Assembly: GCA_018303505.1 (NCBI GenBank)
Contig: JAGVYA010000020.1
Location: 97 to 64,096 of the forward strand
DNA length: 64,000 bases
DNA from: Candidatus Woesearchaeota archaeon
GTDB taxonomy: Archaea; Nanobdellota; Nanobdellia; Woesearchaeales; GW2011-AR4
Direction: 5' to 3'
Shown: one piece after another, positions 5,753-50,024 of the stretch
Layout: each line of letters starts with the position of its first letter
Position numbering within the stretch: position 1 is the stretch's first letter
Position numbers and translations under genes: made by a program
Notes under the pieces: generated by a model
Seen by the model: the letters and a program-made list of their open reading frames with translations, nothing else
What the model was told of the DNA's origin: nothing
The model's database searches: none

Positions 5753-6039
5753 GACAGAATAAGTCTTTTTTTACTAAAAAATAATCAATTTATTCTTCAA
5801 TTACTAAAATAATATTAAAAAAGCTTTATTAATTGATTATAAGCTCTATTTAACCTATTTAATTCCTCGACCACTGGACATCTTCGTGTGAACTTTATAA
5901 AGGACAAATTCTACAATTTTTTTGATTAGCTCGTTATTTTAATCACCTCAAACAATGTTTCAACTACCAAATTATCATTTTTGCTAAAGCTAAAAATGGT
6001 TTACGCAGTCTCAACCAAGTAAAAACTCGGTGATTCAAA

Positions 6040-7149
6040 ATGAACTCGCTTAAACATCAAAAAATTAAAACTAGAAATTATTATTTAAAAGGCCTAGAAA
6101 TTGGTAGGAAGTTTAGAAAGAAACAGCTAGAAGAATTTAGAAACGAAATTCCAAAAGTTAATGAACTTATTAAAGATAATTCCTTAAATTTCGAAAAATG
6201 GTTTGATTATTACCAAAAATTAATCAATTTTGGATGTAGAGAAATAAAAAGTATTGAAAGAGAAAACAATAAATTAAAAATTACATATACAAATTATGCT
6301 AATGGTAAAAAGAAATTATTCTCAACATTATTTCCTAGAAAAATAGAAATTGATGAAGATTTTTTATATTTCTTTGGTTTATGGGTAGGAGATAAAGCAG
6401 GTGGTGGAAGATTAGGTATTATGAATAAAAATAAAACAATTAACCTCTATACAGCACAATATTTAAGAAAACTTTTCCAGCAACCAGAATTCGTTTTACA
6501 TGTTCATGATAATAATATACCAAAATTAAGTTATAAAATCGATAAAATAGTAAGAATAAACAGCGTAAGGAATGGTTATTCTATTTCTGTTCATGCAACA
6601 AATAGTATGTTAAAATCATTTTTTGAATACCTAGAAACTGATTTGGATAGTTTTCTTAGTTTAGTTTCTAATAAAAATATTTTCTTTGCTGGACTCTTTG
6701 ATGCAGAAGGTAATGTGTTTTTGGAAGACAAATGCTTTAGATGGTCATCTAAGAATGAACGAAATATCGAGATTTTTACTAAACATCTCAAAGAGTTAAA
6801 TTTATTTAAAAGATTTGATGGTTGTAACTTAGTAACCTACAATAAAGAAATTTTCTTAAAGAAAATCCTACCCTACATAAAACATCCTCAAAAGATTAAT
6901 GACACAAACCTTATCCTATATAAGACAGGTACTTTGAGTATGAGATTTAATAGAATACTTAAATTCGTTAATGATAATCCAGGGAAAACTGCGAAAGAAA
7001 TTGCGAAAGCTTTAAAAATGGTCAAGGTCTACTCTCAGATAAAGTTCTTAGAATATTTAGAACTAATAAAAGCTGAGGATTATCCGCGTAAAATGTTTAT
7101 AACTAATAAAAGTTCGGGAGTATTGCTCCGAGGGGGGAAGGATTTATGA
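6040..7149 (+). CDS. free-standing double-motif LAGLIDADG homing endonuclease with C-terminal HTH-like region
   Basis: FFGLWVGDKAGG and FFAGLFDAEGNVF motifs. C-terminal GKTAKEIAKALKMVKVYSQIKFLEYLELI. Sits between rps9 and rpoN, which are normally adjacent. Confidence 0.8.
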   Translation: MNSLKHQKIKTRNYYLKGLEIGRKFRKKQLEEFRNEIPKVNELIKDNSLNFEKWFDYYQKLINFGCREIKSIERENNKLKITYTNYANGKKKLFSTLFPRKIEIDEDFLYFFGLWVGDKAGGGRLGIMNKNKTINLYTAQYLRKLFQQPEFVLHVHDNNIPKLSYKIDKIVRINSVRNGYSISVHATNSMLKSFFEYLETDLDSFLSLVSNKNIFFAGLFDAEGNVFLEDKCFRWSSKNERNIEIFTKHLKELNLFKRFDGCNLVTYNKEIFLKKILPYIKHPQKINDTNLILYKTGTLSMRFNRILKFVNDNPGKTAKEIAKALKMVKVYSQIKFLEYLELIKAEDYPRKMFITNKSSGVLLRGGKDL

Positions 7150-25456: not shown

Positions 25457-25613
25457 TTCAATCCGTTGCCTTAGGCAACCAAATTTACACTCAGCGAAAA
25501 TTGTTTTGCCACTAATTTTCGCCTCAAATTTATTAAATGAATAAATCGGCGAGTTGTCGCGCAATGGCAGAAAAGCGACAACGAGCACTAAAGTTTGCCG
25601 AAGGCGGATTGAA
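25457..25613. repeat. full-length copy of the GC-rich TIR/hairpin element
   Basis: ttcaatccg...cggattgaa termini. Hairpins GTTGCC-TTA-GGCAAC, GCGAAAATT/AATTTTCGC and GCC-GAA-GGC. Confidence 0.75.
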
Positions 25614-25643
25614 AAAATAAAAATATACAAATTACAAATAAAA

Positions 25644-26099
25644 ATGCCAGAACTTAAAATCTTGAATAATAAAGAAATAAAAGAAATTTATGGATTTATA
25701 GAAAAGCAATGGGGTGCAAAAGTAAAGCTTGATTATGGTTTTTTGAAGAACAACAAAAATCGAGTTTTTATAATTAGCAAAGATATTTCAAAAATTGACA
25801 TTTCAAAGTTAAGGTTGAATTCTGCAGGCATGTATTTTTGCGAGATTGATAATAAAGGGATAAGGCTTAGCATTGAAGGCGCTCAAATTATTGGGCAAAA
25901 AGCAGCAAAAAATACAGTTGAGCTGAATGAAGAAGAAACGAAGAAATGGTTTAAGGGAGAAGATCTGGAAAAAGAATGCAAAGATTGCAGCGGGTTTGTT
26001 ATATTAAAGCATAATAAAGATTTTCTTGGCAATGGGAAATATACAAATGGCAGGATTTTGAATTATGTGGGGAAGACGAGGAGGGTGAATTTACTTTAG
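25644..26099 (+). CDS. NIP7-like PUA-domain protein
   Basis: Track ORF trimmed to MPELKILNNKEIKEIYGFIEKQWG.... C-terminal ..GFVILKHNKDFLGNGKYTNGRILNYVGK resembles a PUA fold. Confidence 0.5.
   Translation: MPELKILNNKEIKEIYGFIEKQWGAKVKLDYGFLKNNKNRVFIISKDISKIDISKLRLNSAGMYFCEIDNKGIRLSIEGAQIIGQKAAKNTVELNEEETKKWFKGEDLEKECKDCSGFVILKHNKDFLGNGKYTNGRILNYVGKTRRVNLL
26055..26090 (+). repeat. direct repeat copy 1 (36 bp, perfect)
   Basis: attttgaattatgtggggaagacgaggagggtgaat, identical to 26968-27003. Lies inside the 3' end of 25644..26099. Confidence 0.95.
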
Positions 26100-26567
26100 T
26101 ATCTCCTGTTTGTTTATTATGATTACTTTATCTTTGGTTTCGATATCATTAATTATTTGTTTAAGCTGATTCTTATTTACTAATTCCTTTAAAGAATATA
26201 AAATTGTTTCTAAGTCAACTACATTAATGTTTAAATTCTCTGCTAACTGAATGGCTTTATTATCGTTTGTTACCAATGTGAAATTTCTCATTTTGCATAT
26301 TGCAATGCATTCTACCTCCCCTCTCCCGAGATTTTTTTGATAATAAATATTTTTCACCAAATTAGACTCTTGTAAGCTTAGCTTTGGATGTTGGAAAATT
26401 TTTGATGCAAGAACATCTTTCACTAATGGTAATTTTGAACGTGCCAAGTCTGATATGACGGCAGGTGGGATTAAGAGATAACTCTTGCCGAATAATCTTT
26501 TTAGCAAGCTTAATTTTTTAATTTTCGCAAATGTGCTGAGCACATCTGCATCAAACACGAAAGCCAT
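26091..26567 (-). CDS. PIN-domain ribonuclease (VapC-like toxin)
   Basis: FVFDADVLSTF, GEVECIA, LVTNDNKA acidic residues in PIN order. Paired with the upstream antitoxin-like gene. Confidence 0.75.
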   Translation of the reverse strand: MAFVFDADVLSTFAKIKKLSLLKRLFGKSYLLIPPAVISDLARSKLPLVKDVLASKIFQHPKLSLQESNLVKNIYYQKNLGRGEVECIAICKMRNFTLVTNDNKAIQLAENLNINVVDLETILYSLKELVNKNQLKQIINDIETKDKVIIINKQEILK

Positions 26568-26571
26568 TAAT

Positions 26572-26901
26572 TCACCTTCTAGCTTTCCTTATTATTTCAA
26601 GCCCTTTTTTTACTCGTTTGTTAGAAGACTTAATAACGCGCACAATGCCTCTTTCAGCCAACGCATCCTTGAAATCTGCAGTATTCATCTCTGCAATCTC
26701 TGAGGCTTTGCCCAAGCTGACTTCTCCTGAGTTATATAGTTCAACTGCAGCAGTTATTTTTAAATGTGGCTTATGCTCAAACAGACATCTTAATGCATCT
26801 TTTGCAACATCTGATTTGCTTGAGTAAAATCCAGCCCTGACTAATGCGGAGATCTCATCACTAATTATTTCAGGTAAACTAAAAGTCTCGGCTTGCGGCA
26901 T
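26572..26901 (-). CDS. UPF0175-type antitoxin-like protein
   Basis: C-terminal GEVSLGKASEIAEMNTADFKDALAERGI pattern. 4-nt gap to the PIN gene. Confidence 0.65.
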   Translation of the reverse strand: MPQAETFSLPEIISDEISALVRAGFYSSKSDVAKDALRCLFEHKPHLKITAAVELYNSGEVSLGKASEIAEMNTADFKDALAERGIVRVIKSSNKRVKKGLEIIRKARR

Positions 26902-26967
26902 TTTTTCTCATATTTATTAATATCTGTTAATATATATATTTTTCTGTTTTTTGAGATTTAATTAAGA

Positions 26968-27003
26968 ATTTTGAATTATGTGGGGAAGACGAGGAGGGTG
27001 AAT
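26968..27003 (+). repeat. direct repeat copy 2 (36 bp, perfect)
   Basis: Identical to 26055-26090. Followed by att aat gtt taa, which would terminate the same reading frame. Confidence 0.95.
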
Positions 27004-27016
27004 ATTAATGTTTAAT

Positions 27017-27877
27017 TCACTTTTGGTATAATCCATGAGTAGACAACCTATAATCGTTACTAGAATGCACCCAATAAGCAATGATGCCTTCTCCAATCTT
27101 ATCCAACTTAGTTTGTGGTTGGACTCCCGTTAATAACAAACCCCACTTCCTCAATAGACCAACATACCGTTCTAATGCATCTAGCAAATTGCCATAATTA
27201 TCACTCCCTCTGAACCCGCCCATACCTTTCATTATGAGTGAAAAAATTCCATTTTTTACCATAACCTCCATTGCAGGTTTAACTTTTGTTGCATCAGCTT
27301 TAACAAAGTAGAGTGTTCTTTGCGTGTTTCCTACTTTATATCTTACTTTTGTAGTATAATTTCTATTATCAACTCTGTCAATATCGGCACCATATTTTTG
27401 AAGTCTTTGTACTACGCCATCAATAGTCTCTCGGCTTATTTGTGGATCAATCATTATATGTTTCGTTGCGTTGAATAGGACTCCATGCTCCACATCATCA
27501 AAAGAACCTAAATCGACACTAGGATATTTTTTTCTCTCTGGATTTTCTGCAGATTTTTTTATTATTTCGTATGCAAAAGGTTTATCCATAATACCTTGGA
27601 TTGCATTAGCTAAAAATACTCTTTCCTCTTGACTCAAATTTATGTCATCAAGAAGTCCCACTAATTCAGATGAGTCCCTTCCATTTACGACAAACTTGAC
27701 ACCTTCGTCAGTTAGTCTTGGAGTAGTCTCAGGGCTTGAAATAAATTGATGACTATACAACTCATCTAAAATAAGTCTAACAGTTGGATTACTAGTTGAA
27801 ATTGGTTTTCCAGCCCAAAGGTCCCTAATTACTTCTTCTTTTAATAGATGGTGTTCCATCAAAATCGCCCATATCAT
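27017..27877 (-). CDS. hypothetical protein, third gene of the RelA/SpoT-like cassette
   Basis: Track ORF, 286 aa. N-terminal VRLILDELYSHQFISSPETTPRLTDEGVKFV looks winged-helix-like. The rest is unrecognised. Confidence 0.6.
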   Translation of the reverse strand: MIWAILMEHHLLKEEVIRDLWAGKPISTSNPTVRLILDELYSHQFISSPETTPRLTDEGVKFVVNGRDSSELVGLLDDINLSQEERVFLANAIQGIMDKPFAYEIIKKSAENPERKKYPSVDLGSFDDVEHGVLFNATKHIMIDPQISRETIDGVVQRLQKYGADIDRVDNRNYTTKVRYKVGNTQRTLYFVKADATKVKPAMEVMVKNGIFSLIMKGMGGFRGSDNYGNLLDALERYVGLLRKWGLLLTGVQPQTKLDKIGEGIIAYWVHSSNDYRLSTHGLYQK

Positions 27878-27946
27878 TACTATGAATTACCCTATTTAAA
27901 TCTTTCGTTTTTTGACTACTTAGAAGTGGTTATTATTAGTGTCAAA

Positions 27947-28981
27947 TTACCGCTTGGCTTGTGTATATATCTTTGATAGTGGACTCGGCTTCAATCCAAA
28001 CAATTCCCTTAGCTGTATATTAAGCTCAAACCACGATTGTCCAGTTTTTTCTCTTGCCTCCTTGATAACTTGTCTGTATACCCTATGTGCGGCATCTGGG
28101 TGTAATTTATTAAAATCATACTTTTCTGTATCAACTATTTGAATCTCATGAAATAAGCCACAGTAGCTTATGACCAAATTAATGGCCTTATAACCGTTAT
28201 TTTTAGGATGTTGGATATAATCCTTTACACTAACAATAGATATATCCTTTCTCCCCTTTATATATCCTAAAACTATATAGCACATATTTTGGTTCATTGT
28301 AATAAATCTTATGCCACTCAAATCTTTCACTTCATCATTTTCGCTAGGTATTTTATCAACTCTGTAAATTTTATCGATACCAAAGTTTCTATCTGTTATT
28401 TTATCCGCTAAATCGCCTGGTGATTTTATTCTACCAGTGATTCCGATAACATCTCTTTTTTTTCTTTTAAGTTGTTCTTCAATTTCACCAAAAGAAGAAG
28501 ATCTTGAACTTATAATCTTCCTTACAAAATTATCTGGAGCATATATCAAAAAGGATTTTTCCACTTCTACTGGAACATTATGTGCTTTGCATGTTTGTAA
28601 TTCACTATGTCTTGCAGTAATCATATTAGTTAATTCTTCATCTGTTGATTGCAAAGCAATAATATCTGGTCTCGTTAGATCTTCAACTACAACTATAGGG
28701 TTATTGTGGAATCTGTACGCACATAAGCCTTCTAGCGTCATAGCTGGCTTAACAGGAAGGCCATGCCAATATCTACCTAAGAAAGTGTGAACTAAAGCGT
28801 GAGTCCTTGCTTCTGCATTTCTCATTTCCTCTTTGTATGCTTGTTGCACTAACTCTATTTCGTCTGATGGCAAAGAAATTCTTTTATGTTCTTTGTAAGC
28901 ACGTTTTATTTTTCTGACTGATTCTTTTATATCCTCATTATCAAAAATAGCTTCCAAATGTGATAAACTTTCAACTGTCAT
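27947..28981 (-). CDS. RelA/SpoT-family nucleotide pyrophosphokinase (small alarmone synthetase-like) with N-terminal extension
   Basis: Ordered motifs ITGRIKSPGDLADKI, DLSGIRFIT, DYIQHPKNNGYKAINLVI, FHEIQIVD...HPDAAHRVYR. Confidence 0.75.
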   Translation of the reverse strand: MTVESLSHLEAIFDNEDIKESVRKIKRAYKEHKRISLPSDEIELVQQAYKEEMRNAEARTHALVHTFLGRYWHGLPVKPAMTLEGLCAYRFHNNPIVVVEDLTRPDIIALQSTDEELTNMITARHSELQTCKAHNVPVEVEKSFLIYAPDNFVRKIISSRSSSFGEIEEQLKRKKRDVIGITGRIKSPGDLADKITDRNFGIDKIYRVDKIPSENDEVKDLSGIRFITMNQNMCYIVLGYIKGRKDISIVSVKDYIQHPKNNGYKAINLVISYCGLFHEIQIVDTEKYDFNKLHPDAAHRVYRQVIKEAREKTGQSWFELNIQLRELFGLKPSPLSKIYTQAKR

Positions 28982-29045
28982 TTTATTATGAGAAATTAGT
29001 TATTATTTAATATTTTTTGGATTTTTTGTTAAAAACCTCTTTAAG

Positions 29046-30758
29046 CTATTGGCTACCATTTGGTCTTCTGTAGTCTGTAATCATCTCTGAATGGTCTGGC
29101 AATAGCCTCATCAAAAGATTAAAGTCGTCAAGAGTGGAAAAAATATGTTTTCTAGGATCATAATCGCCAGGACTATTTAGTGTGGCAAGTTGACGAGAGT
29201 CCCTTCTTGCATGTTTGTCATACACCATAGTAAATTTTGGAAGCAGTATTTCTAAATGTCTTGCATCTTTGTAGCTTTCTATTCTTTCTTTTGTATCTCT
29301 ATCTAATGCGTCAATACTTTCTCTACCGCCTGCATCTCTTGCGAGCCAAGTCCCAATAAATCCAGGATCAGTTATCCTATAATAAAATGTAGTTCGTTTT
29401 TTTCTTTCAATTAATTTATCAACTAGGGGTTTAATTGCTTTTATTTCTGGATCATCCTCGTATATTTTTATTGCAGATTGTGCCAACCTTAATTTGGCAT
29501 CTACTAAATCGCTTATTGCATAAACTGCAAGTCTCATTAATTGATGTGTACCTTCATTTACTTTTCCAGAGACCGTGGGTATACCATAACTATTAAAAGT
29601 TCGGTTTGCATATTGCATGCCTGAAACCCCTGCTACCGAGTTTGCCACACGCATTGCAGCACTCATTGATTTTCCGTCTTTTTCTAGGCTTCCAAACCTT
29701 TTTGTAAACTCTTCTCCAATAACATAACTAATTTCATTACCATCTACAGAACCAGTAATTATCCTTCCATTTTTAGAGGCCATTCTTAATTGTTGCATTA
29801 CCTCGGCAGGAATAGGATCAGTTTCATCACTATTACTTATCAAATCAGCACTTTTTACAACAAATCTTCTAAAAGTTTGATCAAGCCCCTCACCACCATC
29901 TCTTGAGAAATCATGTCTTAGGGAGTAGGCATAAGAATTTTTATCTGTAAATCTTGTAGCATCCATTACGATTCTTACAGCTTTAGTGTGATATTTCCTG
30001 TAATCTTCTCTTTCAGCTCCTTTCACACCTTGGGGAATGTAACCATTTAATCTCCTTTCGAGTTCTTCAGCCTTTTTTCTTCTTGCTTCGGTTAATAACC
30101 CAGAATATTTTTTTAAATTAGCCCCATCATTCCTAAAAAGAGCATCTAGCCAATTATTTTCAAACCCTTTTATTTCTGGATCTTCTTCAATTTTGTCATG
30201 CAGTAAGGCTGCAATAAAAATTATATAATCAAGGGGCACACCAGCCTTTAATGATATTTTAAGCGCTTCTTGTAAATCACTATAGATATGGGAACTTGCA
30301 GGCAATGCGCTGTGCCTTCTTTGCCCAATTGCTATAAAATCTTTTTGTACATCTTCTTCAACTCTAGCCGCTATTTCTTTTAGCGGGTCTTTCAAATATC
30401 TGCCATATTTATCTTCAGTCTGTTTAAAATTAGGTGAATCTAAAAAACTTCCAAAAAACAAGTGCTTTTTTAGCCATTCTTCATAATCATTTCTCCTTGT
30501 GGGGCTGGGGTGTAATATTTCATTAACAAATAACTCATCGATGGTTAGAACATATCTTCCGTTAGGAGACGCATAAACATCATATCTCGGCTGTGGAGTT
30601 ACTTCTGTAGACTGTTGAATTGCTTTATCTATTTCTGGAGTTTCAACAATAACTGGTGATGGACTTTCTTGTCTAAACCACCCCAAAAATCCTACTGCCA
30701 TTGTCCCAACCTTTGTTGCTCTTTTCAAAAATTTTTCCAAATCGTCTTTCTGTGACAT
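29046..30758 (-). CDS. SpoT-type HD-domain (alarmone hydrolase-like) protein, 570 aa
   Basis: SHIYSDL...IFIAALLHDKIEEDP and VVKSADLISN resemble the H..HD..ED and KLADRLHN motifs of RelA/SpoT hydrolase domains. Large flanking regions are unrecognised. Confidence 0.7.
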   Translation of the reverse strand: MSQKDDLEKFLKRATKVGTMAVGFLGWFRQESPSPVIVETPEIDKAIQQSTEVTPQPRYDVYASPNGRYVLTIDELFVNEILHPSPTRRNDYEEWLKKHLFFGSFLDSPNFKQTEDKYGRYLKDPLKEIAARVEEDVQKDFIAIGQRRHSALPASSHIYSDLQEALKISLKAGVPLDYIIFIAALLHDKIEEDPEIKGFENNWLDALFRNDGANLKKYSGLLTEARRKKAEELERRLNGYIPQGVKGAEREDYRKYHTKAVRIVMDATRFTDKNSYAYSLRHDFSRDGGEGLDQTFRRFVVKSADLISNSDETDPIPAEVMQQLRMASKNGRIITGSVDGNEISYVIGEEFTKRFGSLEKDGKSMSAAMRVANSVAGVSGMQYANRTFNSYGIPTVSGKVNEGTHQLMRLAVYAISDLVDAKLRLAQSAIKIYEDDPEIKAIKPLVDKLIERKKRTTFYYRITDPGFIGTWLARDAGGRESIDALDRDTKERIESYKDARHLEILLPKFTMVYDKHARRDSRQLATLNSPGDYDPRKHIFSTLDDFNLLMRLLPDHSEMITDYRRPNGSQ

Positions 30759-30946
30759 TTTCTTTTAATCTTCTCCAATATTAACATTCATTCCGTCCTC
30801 TATTTATCAACCTCTTTTCCTTCTCGAGAACCAAAAGTTTACAGCTCCCCTAAGTAATCCATAATGATTTATTCATTTAAAAAGTTATCTGTTTTTGGTG
30901 ATAAAAATTCTATATAAAATATATAGAAAATGTTTTATTTTCTACT

Positions 30947-31360
30947 TTATTCTTCTTTATTTTCAATGATAACACCTATTCTATTCTTTTTTTCTTTTAA
31001 AAAACTAATTAAATGCCTATCCAAGTCAAATGCGGCCTTATTTGCCCTTATTGCAAATGTCCTTTCAGAAACGAAATTAGTCTTTCTAATTACGAGTTCC
31101 TTACTGCTGTTGAAGCTTGGATTAAGTTCTGCACTAACTGTTTCCTGATATTTTTTATCCTCTGATGCAATTTTTATTATTATTCGATTATTTTTAGAAT
31201 CTTTAATGAATTCCTTTATTTTGATTAAATCAAAATCAGCTTTAACTGCAACAATGCAGTCTCCTTTCAAGCTGACTTCTTTGTCTTTTGTAAATTCTAG
31301 TGTTGTTTTATGAGTTGCTAATATGTTTGGATGACCATAAGCATTGAATTTGTAAATCAT
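30947..31360 (-). CDS. DUF371-family protein
   Basis: AYGHPNILATHKTTLEFTKD...GDCIVAV pattern. Confidence 0.55.
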   Translation of the reverse strand: MIYKFNAYGHPNILATHKTTLEFTKDKEVSLKGDCIVAVKADFDLIKIKEFIKDSKNNRIIIKIASEDKKYQETVSAELNPSFNSSKELVIRKTNFVSERTFAIRANKAAFDLDRHLISFLKEKKNRIGVIIENKEE

Positions 31361-40706: not shown

Positions 40707-41126
40707 TCAGAGTCCTTTATCTGATTTAATTTTTTTGATATATTCCTGAATAGTATCAAGCGAAAATGGTTTTTGTATTACACCATCGGGTCCTAATTGC
40801 CCAAGCAAGCCATAGAGTTTTTTGTAAGTATCATCAGACTGACGTCCTGTTACAACATAAACTGGTGTTGGTTGAGATATGCCCTTAATCCGTTTAACTA
40901 CTTCTATCCCACTTGCTTCTGGCATATTTAAGTCTGTGAATACTGCGTCATATGGTTTTCCCCCATTAAACATTGAAACATATTTTTCTATACCATCTTT
41001 TCCATTCAAAGCTGTAGTAACATTTGCCCCACATGGCTCGATTATTTCCTTTAGAAAGTCTCTAATTAAAGGATCATCATCTATGACTAAGACTTCTAGC
41101 CGTCTACCTTGGTTTATTTCTGGCAT
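40707..41126 (-). CDS. single-domain response regulator (REC)
   Basis: VLVIDDDPL, DAVFTDLNMPEASG, VIQKPF. Confidence 0.8.
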   Translation of the reverse strand: MPEINQGRRLEVLVIDDDPLIRDFLKEIIEPCGANVTTALNGKDGIEKYVSMFNGGKPYDAVFTDLNMPEASGIEVVKRIKGISQPTPVYVVTGRQSDDTYKKLYGLLGQLGPDGVIQKPFSLDTIQEYIKKIKSDKGL

Positions 41127-41230
41127 ATGGGTATATAATGGTATGTCTATTTATAAATCTTTTTATTTTTGTTATTATAAAGTGGTGAAAAATAGAAAAG
41201 TTTAAATACTAGTTTTAAGGTGATTATGCT

Positions 41231-41461
41231 ATGAGAAATGAGAGAATAGTTAGTGTTGATTTGACTAACCCATATTTAATTGCCATAGTAGCAGAACTAA
41301 TTGGTTTAAATAATCAACCAAAAAAAGAAAGACCAAAACCTGAAAAAAGAGAGGGTATTCAACCTGTACCACCAGTTTATCATACTTATGATAGCCAAGG
41401 CAGGCTTCCAAAGTATGGAGAAAGACCGCCACAATATGTTCCTATTGATTTGAGAGTATAA
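41231..41461 (+). CDS. small Pro-rich hypothetical protein
   Basis: Track ORF only. Confidence 0.35.
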   Translation: MRNERIVSVDLTNPYLIAIVAELIGLNNQPKKERPKPEKREGIQPVPPVYHTYDSQGRLPKYGERPPQYVPIDLRV

Positions 41462-41542
41462 ATTTTACACCATATAGCTTTTTCTTAAAACCAATAAATA
41501 TTTAAAAATAAACAAATATGGCAATTAAAAAGAGGTATAAAT

Positions 41543-42463
41543 ATGTTATTCTCTAAACTTAAGCATAAAGATGAAGAGCTTCTTCCGCCTCCACCTCCGT
41601 TTCCTAATCTGGAGTTTGAAGAACAAGCTGAGGAAAAGCCCAAGTTCTTTGACGAAATCATAAAGCCAAAAAAAGCTGAAACTTTTCCTGAAGAAAAGGA
41701 GTTTAGCGAATTAGTAAAAAAAGTGGAAGAATTAAAGCCAAAAAAAATGTTAAGCAAAAGGGAAAAAACAATTGCAAAAAAACGATTCAAAAAAATAACT
41801 CAACAAAAAAAAATAAAGGTAAAGAAAGCGCAACCAATAAAAATAATTCAAGTTAAACCAATAAAAGAAAAGAAAATAACATTAAAAAAACCTTCAATAA
41901 AACAAGCTAAAAAACCTTTACCAAAAATAAAACAAAAATTACCAATTAAAAAAACAAAAACACCAAAAATTGAACTGCCTGAGTTGAAAGAAGATTTTCT
42001 TAAGGATATTGACTTTGGGCTTCCAAAAAAACTTGAAAAATCTAAAGAAGGAACTGGATTTCCGGAAACATTAGAAGATTTTGATATTGAGGGGGAATAT
42101 AAACAAAAACCTAAAGAAATTTTAGAGGCTGAAGAGGAGATAAAAAGCGCTATTGAAAATATAAAAAAGCAGGAAAATAAATCTATATTAAAGAGGTTAT
42201 TTTCAAAGAAGTTAAAAGAAGAAGCGCCAGAAGAGCGTCTAATGCTTGAACTTCCAGCAGTAGATAATCTTTCCAAAATACAAAATAAAATAAATGAAGC
42301 AAGGCAGGCATTGATGAAATTTGACTTGAAGACGGCAAAGAGGAACTACATTGAGGCAATGAGGCTCTACAACAATATAAGCCCGGAAGATAAAGCCAAA
42401 GTCTACCATGACATAAAAGAACTTTATTTTGAGAGAAAAAGCGCAGAGGAACTAAAGGTTTAG
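41543..42463 (+). CDS. Lys/Pro-rich low-complexity protein with helical C-terminal domain
   Basis: N-terminal ELLPPPPPFPNLEFEE. C-terminal ..AKRNYIEAMRLYNNISPEDKAKVYHDIKELY. Paralogous to 42838..43773. Confidence 0.6.
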   Translation: MLFSKLKHKDEELLPPPPPFPNLEFEEQAEEKPKFFDEIIKPKKAETFPEEKEFSELVKKVEELKPKKMLSKREKTIAKKRFKKITQQKKIKVKKAQPIKIIQVKPIKEKKITLKKPSIKQAKKPLPKIKQKLPIKKTKTPKIELPELKEDFLKDIDFGLPKKLEKSKEGTGFPETLEDFDIEGEYKQKPKEILEAEEEIKSAIENIKKQENKSILKRLFSKKLKEEAPEERLMLELPAVDNLSKIQNKINEARQALMKFDLKTAKRNYIEAMRLYNNISPEDKAKVYHDIKELYFERKSAEELKV

Positions 42464-42499
42464 CTGATTTCTATCTTCTCCCCCACTTTCAACCTTAAC
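42453..42499. repeat. direct repeat copy 1 (47 bp, 3 mismatches to 43804-43850)
   Basis: taaaggtttagctgatttctatcttctcccccactttcaaccttaac. Confidence 0.9.
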
Positions 42500-42837
42500 T
42501 AGACCAAATCGTAAATAATTGCTCGCAATTAATCGGCGAGTTTATTGTATTTTACTCTTTTAATTATGAATTAATAATTACGAATCAGTGCACTTAATCT
42601 TTTTTTTGGCTTTAATCTTTCCATTTCCTTCAGCAGGTCTTCAAATTCCTCATCTTTATCCTTGGCTTTTTTTGGCTTTGCGTCAGTAGAAATATCCGGC
42701 TCTTTTTCCTCCTCAAGCTCCATGCTTGGAAAAGCCGGCGAAATAACCTTAAATATAAAGAATAAATTTTATGATGTTGTGAGGGGAATATACAAAAAGT
42801 ACAGGCAACGGCTCGCCTATGCTGATTAAACAATAAT

Positions 42838-43773
42838 TCATTTCAAACTGTTGTACAAATCCATTAATTCACCATAAACTTCCTTTTTCTCGTGGTATTC
42901 CATGCTCATATAAAGATTTCTCACCTCTAAGTATAGCTTCTTGGCTTTTGCAGCATTGCCCTTGCTAATGGATTCTTTTGCCTCATGCAAAGCTTTGTAG
43001 CATTTGCCAAAAGCTTTGCTTTTTCCTGTGAGCTTGATCTTAGGCTTTTCCTCTTTTACCTTTTCTTTTGCCTTGACAACCTCTTTTTCAAAGAATTTCT
43101 TTTCTGGAGATATTTTTTCTTCTTTTATTGGTGTTGATTTTTCCTCTTTTTTCAGCAGCCTCTCAAATATGCCTGGCTTTTTCTTCGAAATTTCGAATTT
43201 ACCCTTTTCCATCTCCTTGAAAAGCCCCAAGCTTTTGATTGCCTCCTCTAATTCCTCTGCTTCGCTGGCTGGCTTTGATTTTTTTGGCTTTTCTTCTACC
43301 TCTTCAGGGACAGCTTCTATTTTTTCTGAAATTGGCTCTTGAGCCTCTCTTTTGCCGAACAGTCTTCCTAAAATAGTAGGCTTCTCCTCAAGGATTGGTT
43401 CTTCTTCCTTTAACTCCTCTTTTATCTCTTCCCGCTCATGCTCTTTCTTCCTGAACAAGCGCTCAAACAAGCCGGCTTTCTTTTCTTCCTGCTTCTTTTC
43501 TTCTATTTCTTTTTGTTTTGCTAATGACTCTTGCTTAATCTTTTCTTCTTTCAGCCTTAGCCTCTCCTCCAAAGCCTTTCTTTTTTCCTCTTCTTTTTCT
43601 TTCCTTATTTTTTGTGCCCTTTCCTTATAGCCAGACACCAGATTTTTTAAGAAAGTCAAACTAAACTTTGACAGCTCTGCTTTATTCTGAGCTTTTATTT
43701 GAGCCTGCCTTTGCTTTTCCAACTCCTTTTGTGCCCTTTCCTGTTCTTTTGCCCTTCTCTCATCATCCTTCAT
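42838..43773 (-). CDS. Lys/Glu-rich low-complexity protein, paralogue of 41543..42463
   Basis: C-terminal ..AKAKKLYLEVRNLYMSMEYHEKKEVYGELMDLY aligns with the C-terminus of the neighbour. Confidence 0.6.
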   Translation of the reverse strand: MKDDERRAKEQERAQKELEKQRQAQIKAQNKAELSKFSLTFLKNLVSGYKERAQKIRKEKEEEKRKALEERLRLKEEKIKQESLAKQKEIEEKKQEEKKAGLFERLFRKKEHEREEIKEELKEEEPILEEKPTILGRLFGKREAQEPISEKIEAVPEEVEEKPKKSKPASEAEELEEAIKSLGLFKEMEKGKFEISKKKPGIFERLLKKEEKSTPIKEEKISPEKKFFEKEVVKAKEKVKEEKPKIKLTGKSKAFGKCYKALHEAKESISKGNAAKAKKLYLEVRNLYMSMEYHEKKEVYGELMDLYNSLK

Positions 43774-43803: not shown

Positions 43804-43850
43804 TAAAGGTTTAGCTTATTTCTATCTTATCCCCCACTTTCAATCTTAAC
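43804..43850. repeat. direct repeat copy 2 (47 bp)
   Basis: taaaggtttagcttatttctatcttatcccccactttcaatcttaac; contains the last 12 codons and stop of 43811..44536. Confidence 0.9.
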
Positions 43851-49250: not shown

Positions 49251-49279
49251 AAATACGTAAGCCCCCAACTTTTCAGTCT
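49251..49279. repeat. direct repeat copy 1 (29 bp, 4 mismatches to 49996-50024)
   Basis: aaatacgtaagcccccaacttttcagtct. Confidence 0.75.
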
Positions 49280-49995: not shown

Positions 49996-50024
49996 AAATA
50001 CGCAAGTCCTCAACTTTTCAGCCT
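49996..50024. repeat. direct repeat copy 2 (29 bp)
   Basis: aaatacgcaagtcctcaacttttcagcct; abuts and overlaps the stop codon of 50023..50676. Confidence 0.75.

Follow-up and report, generated by a model that had tools for sequence, protein, structure and literature searches.

Background

Among described systems, the closest to the locus considered here are the effector-immunity genes of the rhs, contact-dependent inhibition (CDI) and type VI secretion (T6SS) systems, whose arrays of displaced 3' (C-terminal) ends have been attributed to homology-facilitated illegitimate recombination (Kirchberger et al. 2017, PMC5361080), an attribution which, as cited in that paper, goes back to Jackson et al. 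2009. Here we examine a stretch of 64,000 nucleotides from a Candidatus Woesearchaeota archaeon (NCBI GenBank assembly GCA_018303505.1, contig JAGVYA010000020.1, positions 97 to 64,096; hereafter the window), in which a gene coding for a PUA-domain (NIP7-like) protein closes with a 36-bp sequence, termed H for PUA gene-end repeat, that recurs perfectly on the far side of a two-gene cassette of the toxin-antitoxin (TA) type. With moderate confidence, we read this repeat as the probable scar of a homology-anchored insertion, in which units composed of a gene end and a cassette, as judged from the comparison of related sequences, would have had their far end joined illegitimately.

As in the rhs and T6SS arrays, a conserved anchor is here followed by new DNA, 3' pieces lie orphaned downstream, the arrays grow, no integrase is present and an illegitimate join of the far end is proposed (PMC5361080). 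Unlike in those arrays, the role of anchor falls to a housekeeping gene (the PUA/NIP7-like gene at this locus, a CarB-like gene and others elsewhere) instead of a toxin gene, the duplication covers no more than the last 12-45 codons, a self-contained TA operon with no relation to the anchor forms the cargo, and the host is a DPANN archaeon. Homology-anchored displacement with housekeeping-gene ends as anchors and TA cassettes as cargo is what is new here; literature searches returned no description of such gene-end repeats around cassettes in DPANN archaea.

Several other systems share part of this anatomy. Integrative elements that target the 3' ends of genes, flanked by the attachment (att) sites attL and attR and including integrase-less derivatives of the cis-mobilizable element (CIME) type, likewise leave a repeat over a gene's 3' end, keep the gene intact and can form tandem arrays; here, however, an integrase is lacking both within the element and in its vicinity, repeats of other loci show no relation in sequence and vary in length, and the element measures only 0.9 kb. 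Integrons, reportedly described from archaea by Ghaly et al. in 2022, offer the parallel of small cassettes with or without promoters, often TA pairs, in arrays separated by repeats, but the repeat at our locus is a host gene end and not attC, forms no hairpin and has no IntI gene nearby. Campbell-type insertion-duplication gives the same succession of repeat, insert and repeat, with hybrid repeats, dependence on homology and reversibility through recombination between the repeats; unlike the present case, it is known mainly as a laboratory tool or for plasmids, the homology here would span only 36-143 nt, and no circular form was observed at the window locus. Long direct repeats of variable length also flank insertion sequences of the IS1634/IS1549 family, whose transposase and inverted ends have no counterpart in the cassette; moreover, in one array described below the flanking repeats are different alleles.

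The gene-end repeat and the cassette that it encloses

In what follows, the source genome (G000; 1,305,313 bases in 77 contigs with C-numbers, the window being on C1) is compared with the genomes of relatives (G-numbers) and with individual loci or contigs, including metagenome contigs (L-numbers). Two copies of the 36-mer ATTTTGAATTATGTGGGGAAGACGAGGAGGGTGAAT, and no more, are present in the window (26055-26090 and 26968-27003); no chance copy is expected from 100 shuffles of the window, and the entire 1.3 Mb genome contains these two copies only. An earlier note, made from the letters of the window alone, had reported this perfect repeat and proposed searching the genome for more of it, and the counts agree with its description. 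Tolerating one mismatch lengthens the repeat to 39 nt, its copies then beginning at 26052 and 26965; a third copy was absent from the window at up to 3 mismatches, and a script scan at up to 12 mismatches was also empty.

Both copies together with both junctions are reproduced in eight independent public assemblies of groundwater samples (99.4-100% identity), and two further assemblies cover one junction each; the second copy is found in nine other assemblies, namely the eight holding both copies and L128. Since eight assemblies reproduce both copies and junctions, the repeat structure is real, and an artefact of assembly, which is also at odds with the diverged repeats of relatives, is ruled out as its origin. 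The locus is laid out as follows, in window coordinates:

25644..26099, plus strand: PUA-domain (NIP7-like) gene, 151 aa (PF13636, E=3.6e-9), the conserved anchor gene
26055..26090, plus strand: first copy of H, belonging to the functional gene end and encoding its ...ILNYVGKTRRVN
26091..26567, minus strand: DUF3368/PIN-like gene of the predicted toxin, 158 aa, whose stop and last codons overlap the PUA gene tail by 9 bp
26572..26901, minus strand: UPF0175 antitoxin-type gene, 109 aa (PF03683, E=4.6e-12), 4 nt upstream of the toxin gene
26902..26967, minus strand: distal non-coding end of the cassette, AT-rich and TATA-like as read from its sequence
26968..27003, plus strand: second copy of H, an orphaned copy of the PUA gene end
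27004..27015, plus strand: orphan tail ATT AAT GTT TAA (I-N-V-stop), read in frame with the second copy
27017..30758, minus strand: RelA/SpoT-type island of three genes (286 aa, 344 aa and 570 aa; PF04607, E=6.7e-16)
30947..31360, minus strand: DUF371 gene (PF04027, E=7e-33), the conserved right border of the variable slot

The search for the PUA gene covered 61 genomes, counting G000 itself, and 54 of them have it (30 of the 36 relatives from the same genus), usually just after the gene for aIF5B. In the window its new tail after the first copy is L-L-stop, and these last two codons and the stop (TTA CTT TAG) derive from cassette DNA. PUA genes of relatives terminate 2-4 codons past the residues RRVN, and the I-N-V-stop tail behind the second copy is presumably the former terminus of a PUA gene. 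The earlier note had assigned the first copy to the end of a NIP7-like gene, as the PF13636 match bears out, and had taken N-I-N-V-stop for the original terminus of that gene, which holds in the sense of a displaced former terminus.

The 877 bp separating the copies contain, as had been noticed, two genes only, both on the minus strand. The 158-aa protein has no direct Pfam match of its own; PF11848 (DUF3368, PIN-like) is precomputed for 36 of its 37 listed homologues, including the 36 closest full-length ones, and among those listed one also has PF01850 (PIN) and one PF13638. Across 13 homologues the acidic residues D6, E84, E86 and D102 never vary, and D118 and E120 hardly do. A protein identical to the 109-aa UPF0175 product is encoded on at least 24 public contigs. 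The two genes are co-oriented with the antitoxin gene first and a gap of 4 nt, and the pair is kept together in those public contexts, among the ones consulted, that reach both genes. By its domains and operon layout, this cargo is a predicted type II TA pair that combines a UPF0175 antitoxin with a DUF3368 PIN-like nuclease of putative toxicity, and the non-coding segment at 26902-26967 is presumably the cassette's own promoter. The cassette sequence common to other contexts terminates in ...TTAATTAAGAAT, and homology with the contig L129 reaches window position 26969.

Public contigs with close homologues of the PIN-like gene mostly measure just 0.7-1.6 kb. Assembly seems to be interrupted around this cassette, which would be expected if several contexts coexist in one community. 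Contigs of about 1 kb had also suggested a free circle of 913 bp, which was ruled out: the 1,056-bp contig L108 is collinear with window positions 25714-26769.

Other cargos and arrays behind the same gene end

The interval between the PUA and DUF371 genes is a variable slot. Across 20 same-genus genomes it ranges from 13 bp in G024 and 60 bp in G015, where the two genes are direct neighbors, to about 4.6 kb at most in the others. The window slot (26100-30946) spans 4.85 kb and accommodates the TA pair and the three-gene RelA/SpoT-type island; the first open reading frame of the latter (27017-27877, minus strand) begins 13 bp past the second copy, in accord with the previous reading of the sequence. 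Distant homologues of the 570-aa and RelA/SpoT-type genes occupy the slot in several relatives (loci L033-L052).

Using a profile of PUA gene tails, we sought second gene-end copies in relatives and recovered one in G009, 860 bp downstream with 6 mismatches in 40, and another on the metagenome contig L061, where it lies about 770 bp downstream and agrees at 40 of 48 positions. Both repeats enclose a DUF5678 gene and an aspartyl-protease-like gene; the two pairs lie in opposite orientations and share only ~30-44% protein identity, and each orphan gene end has retained its in-frame stop. In the closest relative found, L060 (95% PUA identity), the PUA stop is directly followed by a homologue of the gene that comes after the second copy of L061, which is the uninterrupted arrangement. 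The comparison with related genomes that the earlier note had called for accordingly turned up other cargos in two relatives and an uninterrupted site in a third.

The same cargo as in the window is found on L120, where the PUA protein is 81.5% and the PIN protein 80% identical to those of the window, both genes being ~75-80% identical at the nucleotide level. Its junction is that of the window, i.e. H followed by TTAYTTTAR and the end of the PIN gene. Because L120 has this same junction, the junction between the first copy and the cassette in the window is older than the window's perfect repeat. In all, the junction H|TTACTTTAG is common to the window, L120, L129 and L133.

L129 carries an array that reads, in window orientation, as a G009-type cassette, a gene end H_A, a PIN/UPF0175 cassette, a second gene end H_B, an L061-type cassette and the start of a DUF2283-like gene (the last judged by eye). 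The outer cassettes are two DUF5678 plus aspartyl-protease cassettes, of the G009 and L061 types respectively, and the PIN/UPF0175 cassette is 96% identical to that of the window in nucleotides. H_A differs from the 36-mer at one position and has an in-frame stop, H_B has 6 mismatches to it, and the two differ from each other at about 7 of 36 positions; to judge by these differences, they are different alleles of the gene end. The junction of H_A with the PIN gene is that of the first copy in the window, and the junction of H_B with its cassette is that of the first copy in L061. At its distal side, the PIN cassette reads ...AAGAAT|TTTGAATT in the window and, unlike this, ...AAGAAT GAAAGTT|AATAGAAGGGTTTTG in L129. 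Across contexts, the PIN and L061-type cassettes each keep the same proximal junction, whereas the distal junction of the PIN cassette differs, which would fit fresh joins; the distal junction of the G009-type cassette is identical in G009 and L129. The bases AAGA preceding the second copy in the window had been considered as an L060-like allele, an idea dropped once L129 assigned them to the cassette end.

A further contig, L133, prolongs this array leftward. Its orphan is fused out of frame, with a 6-nt overlap of GATTTT, to a truncated GDPD gene. That gene, at 791-1024 of the reverse complement of L133, is cut after ~62 codons at the left edge of the array. The distal join shows microhomology of 2 nt in the window and of 6 nt in L133. 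Among orphans of the PUA target, those of the window, L061 and L133 have their left edges no more than 1 nt from GATTTTG; in three others the left edge is 13-29 nt farther upstream, and the right edges differ by 0-10 nt. The conserved anchor with orphaned 3' pieces that marks displacement arrays is found throughout, with one orphan each in the window, G009 and L061 and at least three in the L129/L133 array.

UPF0175/DUF3368 pairs of the same family also adjoin metK, ribB, purS/purE, TctA and Fe-S genes, and on L115 such a pair lies between two copies of another gene's 3' end, a repeat of 49 nt with 82% identity.

Two-copy repeats across the genome

Comparison of the genome with itself recovered no fewer than 16 local direct repeats with just two copies in it; their lengths are 29-143 nt, and their copies are 83-100% identical and separated by 700-2,750 bp, dispersed families of 10-22 copies (C35, C71, C27_10578, C65) being excluded from this count. 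Each is a distinct sequence, and most start or end at or near the stop codon of a gene. At least seven of them bracket TA-like pairs as recognized by eye (a PIN gene and a small partner, a HEPN gene and a nucleotidyltransferase gene, or DUF2283-like pairs), the pair in the window being the one scanned against Pfam. A CarB-like gene is a second recurrent anchor: on contig C8 of the source genome a 143-nt, 91%-identical repeat of its end (5846-5988 and 6706-6848) surrounds a PIN pair, and in G033 (L149, G033:C104) an 83-nt, 94%-identical repeat of it (1144-1226 and 2667-2749) encloses a different two-gene cargo, HEPN/nucleotidyltransferase-like by eye.

Three loci can be noted individually. A 47-nt repeat within the window (42453-42499 and 43804-43850; 94% identical, two copies in the genome) overlaps two gene ends, encloses a 311-aa gene and a 50-aa open reading frame, and shows the same kind of footprint. 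An imperfect 29-nt direct repeat (49251-49279 and 49996-50024 of the window) surrounds a cassette of ~716 bp. On C27, at 40943-43751, repeat pairs of 78 nt and 51 nt, drawn from adjacent segments of one spacer, enclose neighboring cassettes, one of them a 63-aa plus 167-aa PIN-like pair, in what looks like a small array arising from two side-by-side insertions. Intergenic regions also carry a dispersed family of repeats (core GCCGAGCACTAAAATTTGCCGAAGGCGGATT, with as many as 22 hits, on C65, C75, C6 and others), a diverged copy of which was seen by eye just upstream of the PUA gene, at about 25560-25620 of the window; other palindromic intergenic repeat families are found on C35, C71 and C27.

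A proposed model of homology-anchored insertion

According to the homology-anchored insertion that we favor, the moving unit would combine H, a few dozen bases from the end of the PUA gene, with the cassette, and would not be the bare TA cassette. The inclusion of H is suggested because gene end and cassette co-occur in the window, L120, L129 and L133 for the PIN cassette and in L061 and L129 for the L061-type one. Host homologous recombination, presumably by RadA, would pair the incoming H with the resident PUA gene end, and the far end of the incoming DNA would be joined illegitimately with little or no microhomology. This could take place on a linear fragment through one-ended recombination, that is, by homology-facilitated illegitimate recombination, or else on a fragment that is first circularized and then integrated in the Campbell manner. 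Either route would yield a functional gene end fused to the cassette with an orphaned gene end behind it, and successive rounds would stack cassettes separated by orphans into arrays.

The direction of the event in the window would allow two readings, with the incoming side being either the cassette or the RelA/SpoT island bearing its own PUA stub. If the pair is addictive, as predicted, selection would act against recombinants that lose it. An ordinary double crossover replacing the variable island would delete the pair; addiction might then favor those rare recombinants that join downstream of it and leave a gene-end stub.

The earlier note had seen the footprint of a duplicative or site-specific insertion into a gene end. 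We retain the scar of an insertion at the PUA gene end, whereas the two qualifiers lack support as they stand: the junction is shared with L120 at ~20% divergence, the ~7 of 36 differences between the flanking copies in L129 exclude a fresh target-site duplication there, and the repeats at the other loci of the genome, which are all different (29-143 nt), speak against one att site.

Several considerations weigh against the proposed insertion. No exact empty site of the source strain, which would join PUA...H straight to ATTAATGTTTAA, was recovered from the 43 genus genomes and 45 metagenome loci. The distal junction of the G009-type cassette shared by G009 and L129 fits inheritance through a circular intermediate better than it does repeated illegitimate joins, and the three orphan left edges within 1 nt of GATTTTG could mean a defined site of cleavage or recombination. 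The model leaves the first placement of a cassette beside a new anchor gene unexplained, and the 36/36 identity of the two copies could equally reflect copy correction in an old structure. Finally, a stretch of only 36 nt supports homologous recombination inefficiently in the organisms where this has been measured.

Alternative explanations

An unlikely alternative, though the least improbable of the three considered, is site-specific integration in trans. Under it the cassettes would be integrase-less, att-flanked elements (CIME-like or integron-like) with an att site overlapping the PUA 3' end, moved by a tyrosine recombinase encoded elsewhere, for example one of the three of the genome or one from a virus or plasmid, with tandem accretion building the arrays. 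A repeat does here overlap a gene's 3' end, the classic signature of attL/attR, three different cargos occupy the same target, and the coincidence of three orphan left edges, the resemblance of the L129 array to tandem accretion and the conservation of the G009-type distal junction in two contexts all agree with it. The three PF00589 genes of the genome could supply the enzyme, but they lie on C67, C31 and C36, and the window's contig C1 has no match to this family. Neither integrase nor transposase was found on the 64-kb contig, an absence already remarked upon in the earlier note, and only the two cassette genes, with no transposase reading frame, lie between the repeats, leaving no recombinase in or beside the element. 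That at least 16 loci in one genome carry unrelated repeats, that related cargos sit in both orientations at the same site and that the distal PIN junction differs between the window and L129 are likewise hard to reconcile with it. Since the repeats of the other loci are unrelated, variable in length and without a recombinase, a single dedicated att site is improbable.

The structure of H itself points the same way. Its copies with their flanks fold no better than shuffled sequences (-0.6 and -0.4 kcal/mol; z=0.85 and 0.53), leaving no hairpin at the repeats; the 36-mer has no inverted symmetry of the kind expected of a dif-like site with two inverted arms, such as Xer/dif-exploiting elements (IMEX) use, and the cassette ends have no inverted repeats. 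Constraint on H at the nucleotide level, as an att site might impose, was unsupported: the entropy of synonymous codons at codons 138-149 was, across 56 sequences, not clearly lower than over the remainder of the gene. Searches for tRNA genes and Rfam families in the region of the locus were negative.

Slightly less probable still is an old, vertically inherited adjacency, in which the repeat would be ancient, its perfection would be due to gene conversion and nothing recent would have happened at the locus. The PUA gene and the cassette are indeed about equally diverged between the window and L120, and the structure is fixed in all sampled assemblies of the population. Against this, relatives closer to the source in PUA identity than L120 lack the PIN cassette at this place (L060 at 95%, L061 at 89% and G017 at 86%), orphans at other places have accumulated 1-6 mismatches over 36 positions, and conversion of a 36-nt tract across 913 bp would be expected to be rare.

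A true target-site duplication, in which a bare cassette enters a long staggered break made by some unknown enzyme or a trans-acting transposase (e.g. of the IS1634/IS1549 family) and gap filling copies the 36 bp, is very improbable: it would account for the perfect identity of the copies, for repeat lengths that vary among loci, as is known for the IS1634 family, and for cargos in both orientations, but the junction of H with the PIN gene, common to L120 at ~20% divergence, predates the event, L129 can hold no such duplication because its flanking copies differ at ~7/36 around a cassette just 4% from that of the window, and there are neither terminal inverted repeats nor a transposase nor, for a long duplication of the Cas1/casposase type, any Cas1 in the genome.

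Two observations on recombination-related genes elsewhere in the genome may be recorded here. The tyrosine recombinase gene on C36 (7247-8049) is apparently split into two open reading frames (116 aa and 90 aa) and is separated by ~0.9 kb from a pair of 54-nt direct repeats (8935 and 9890) that surrounds a 144-aa gene. The sole reverse transcriptase of the genome is on C72 (662-1279 and 7063-8565), near several repeats spaced exactly 1,229 bp apart, which suggests a diversity-generating retroelement (DGR-like).

Implications

Little is understood of how bare TA and defense cassettes move when they have no recombinase of their own, above all in DPANN archaea that are uncultured and have small genomes. 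The picture that this locus offers is one in which a few dozen bases from the end of a conserved gene would travel with the cassette as its address, the orphans and arrays being by-products. Beyond the locus, we regard it as possible, and no more than tentatively so, that an undiscovered enzyme makes long staggered cuts at gene ends, or that DPANN archaea have a general way of acquiring and stacking accessory cassettes that carry no recombinase and are each addressed by a short copy of a housekeeping gene's end. Were the mechanism general, it would explain why accessory genes in these genomes are found precisely downstream of housekeeping genes, what makes these sites hypervariable and how arrays can form without integrons, and a short duplicated gene end would serve as a simple marker of recent gene gain in annotation. 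If true, it would amount to an integron-like array system in DPANN archaea that is driven by homology instead of attC and IntI.

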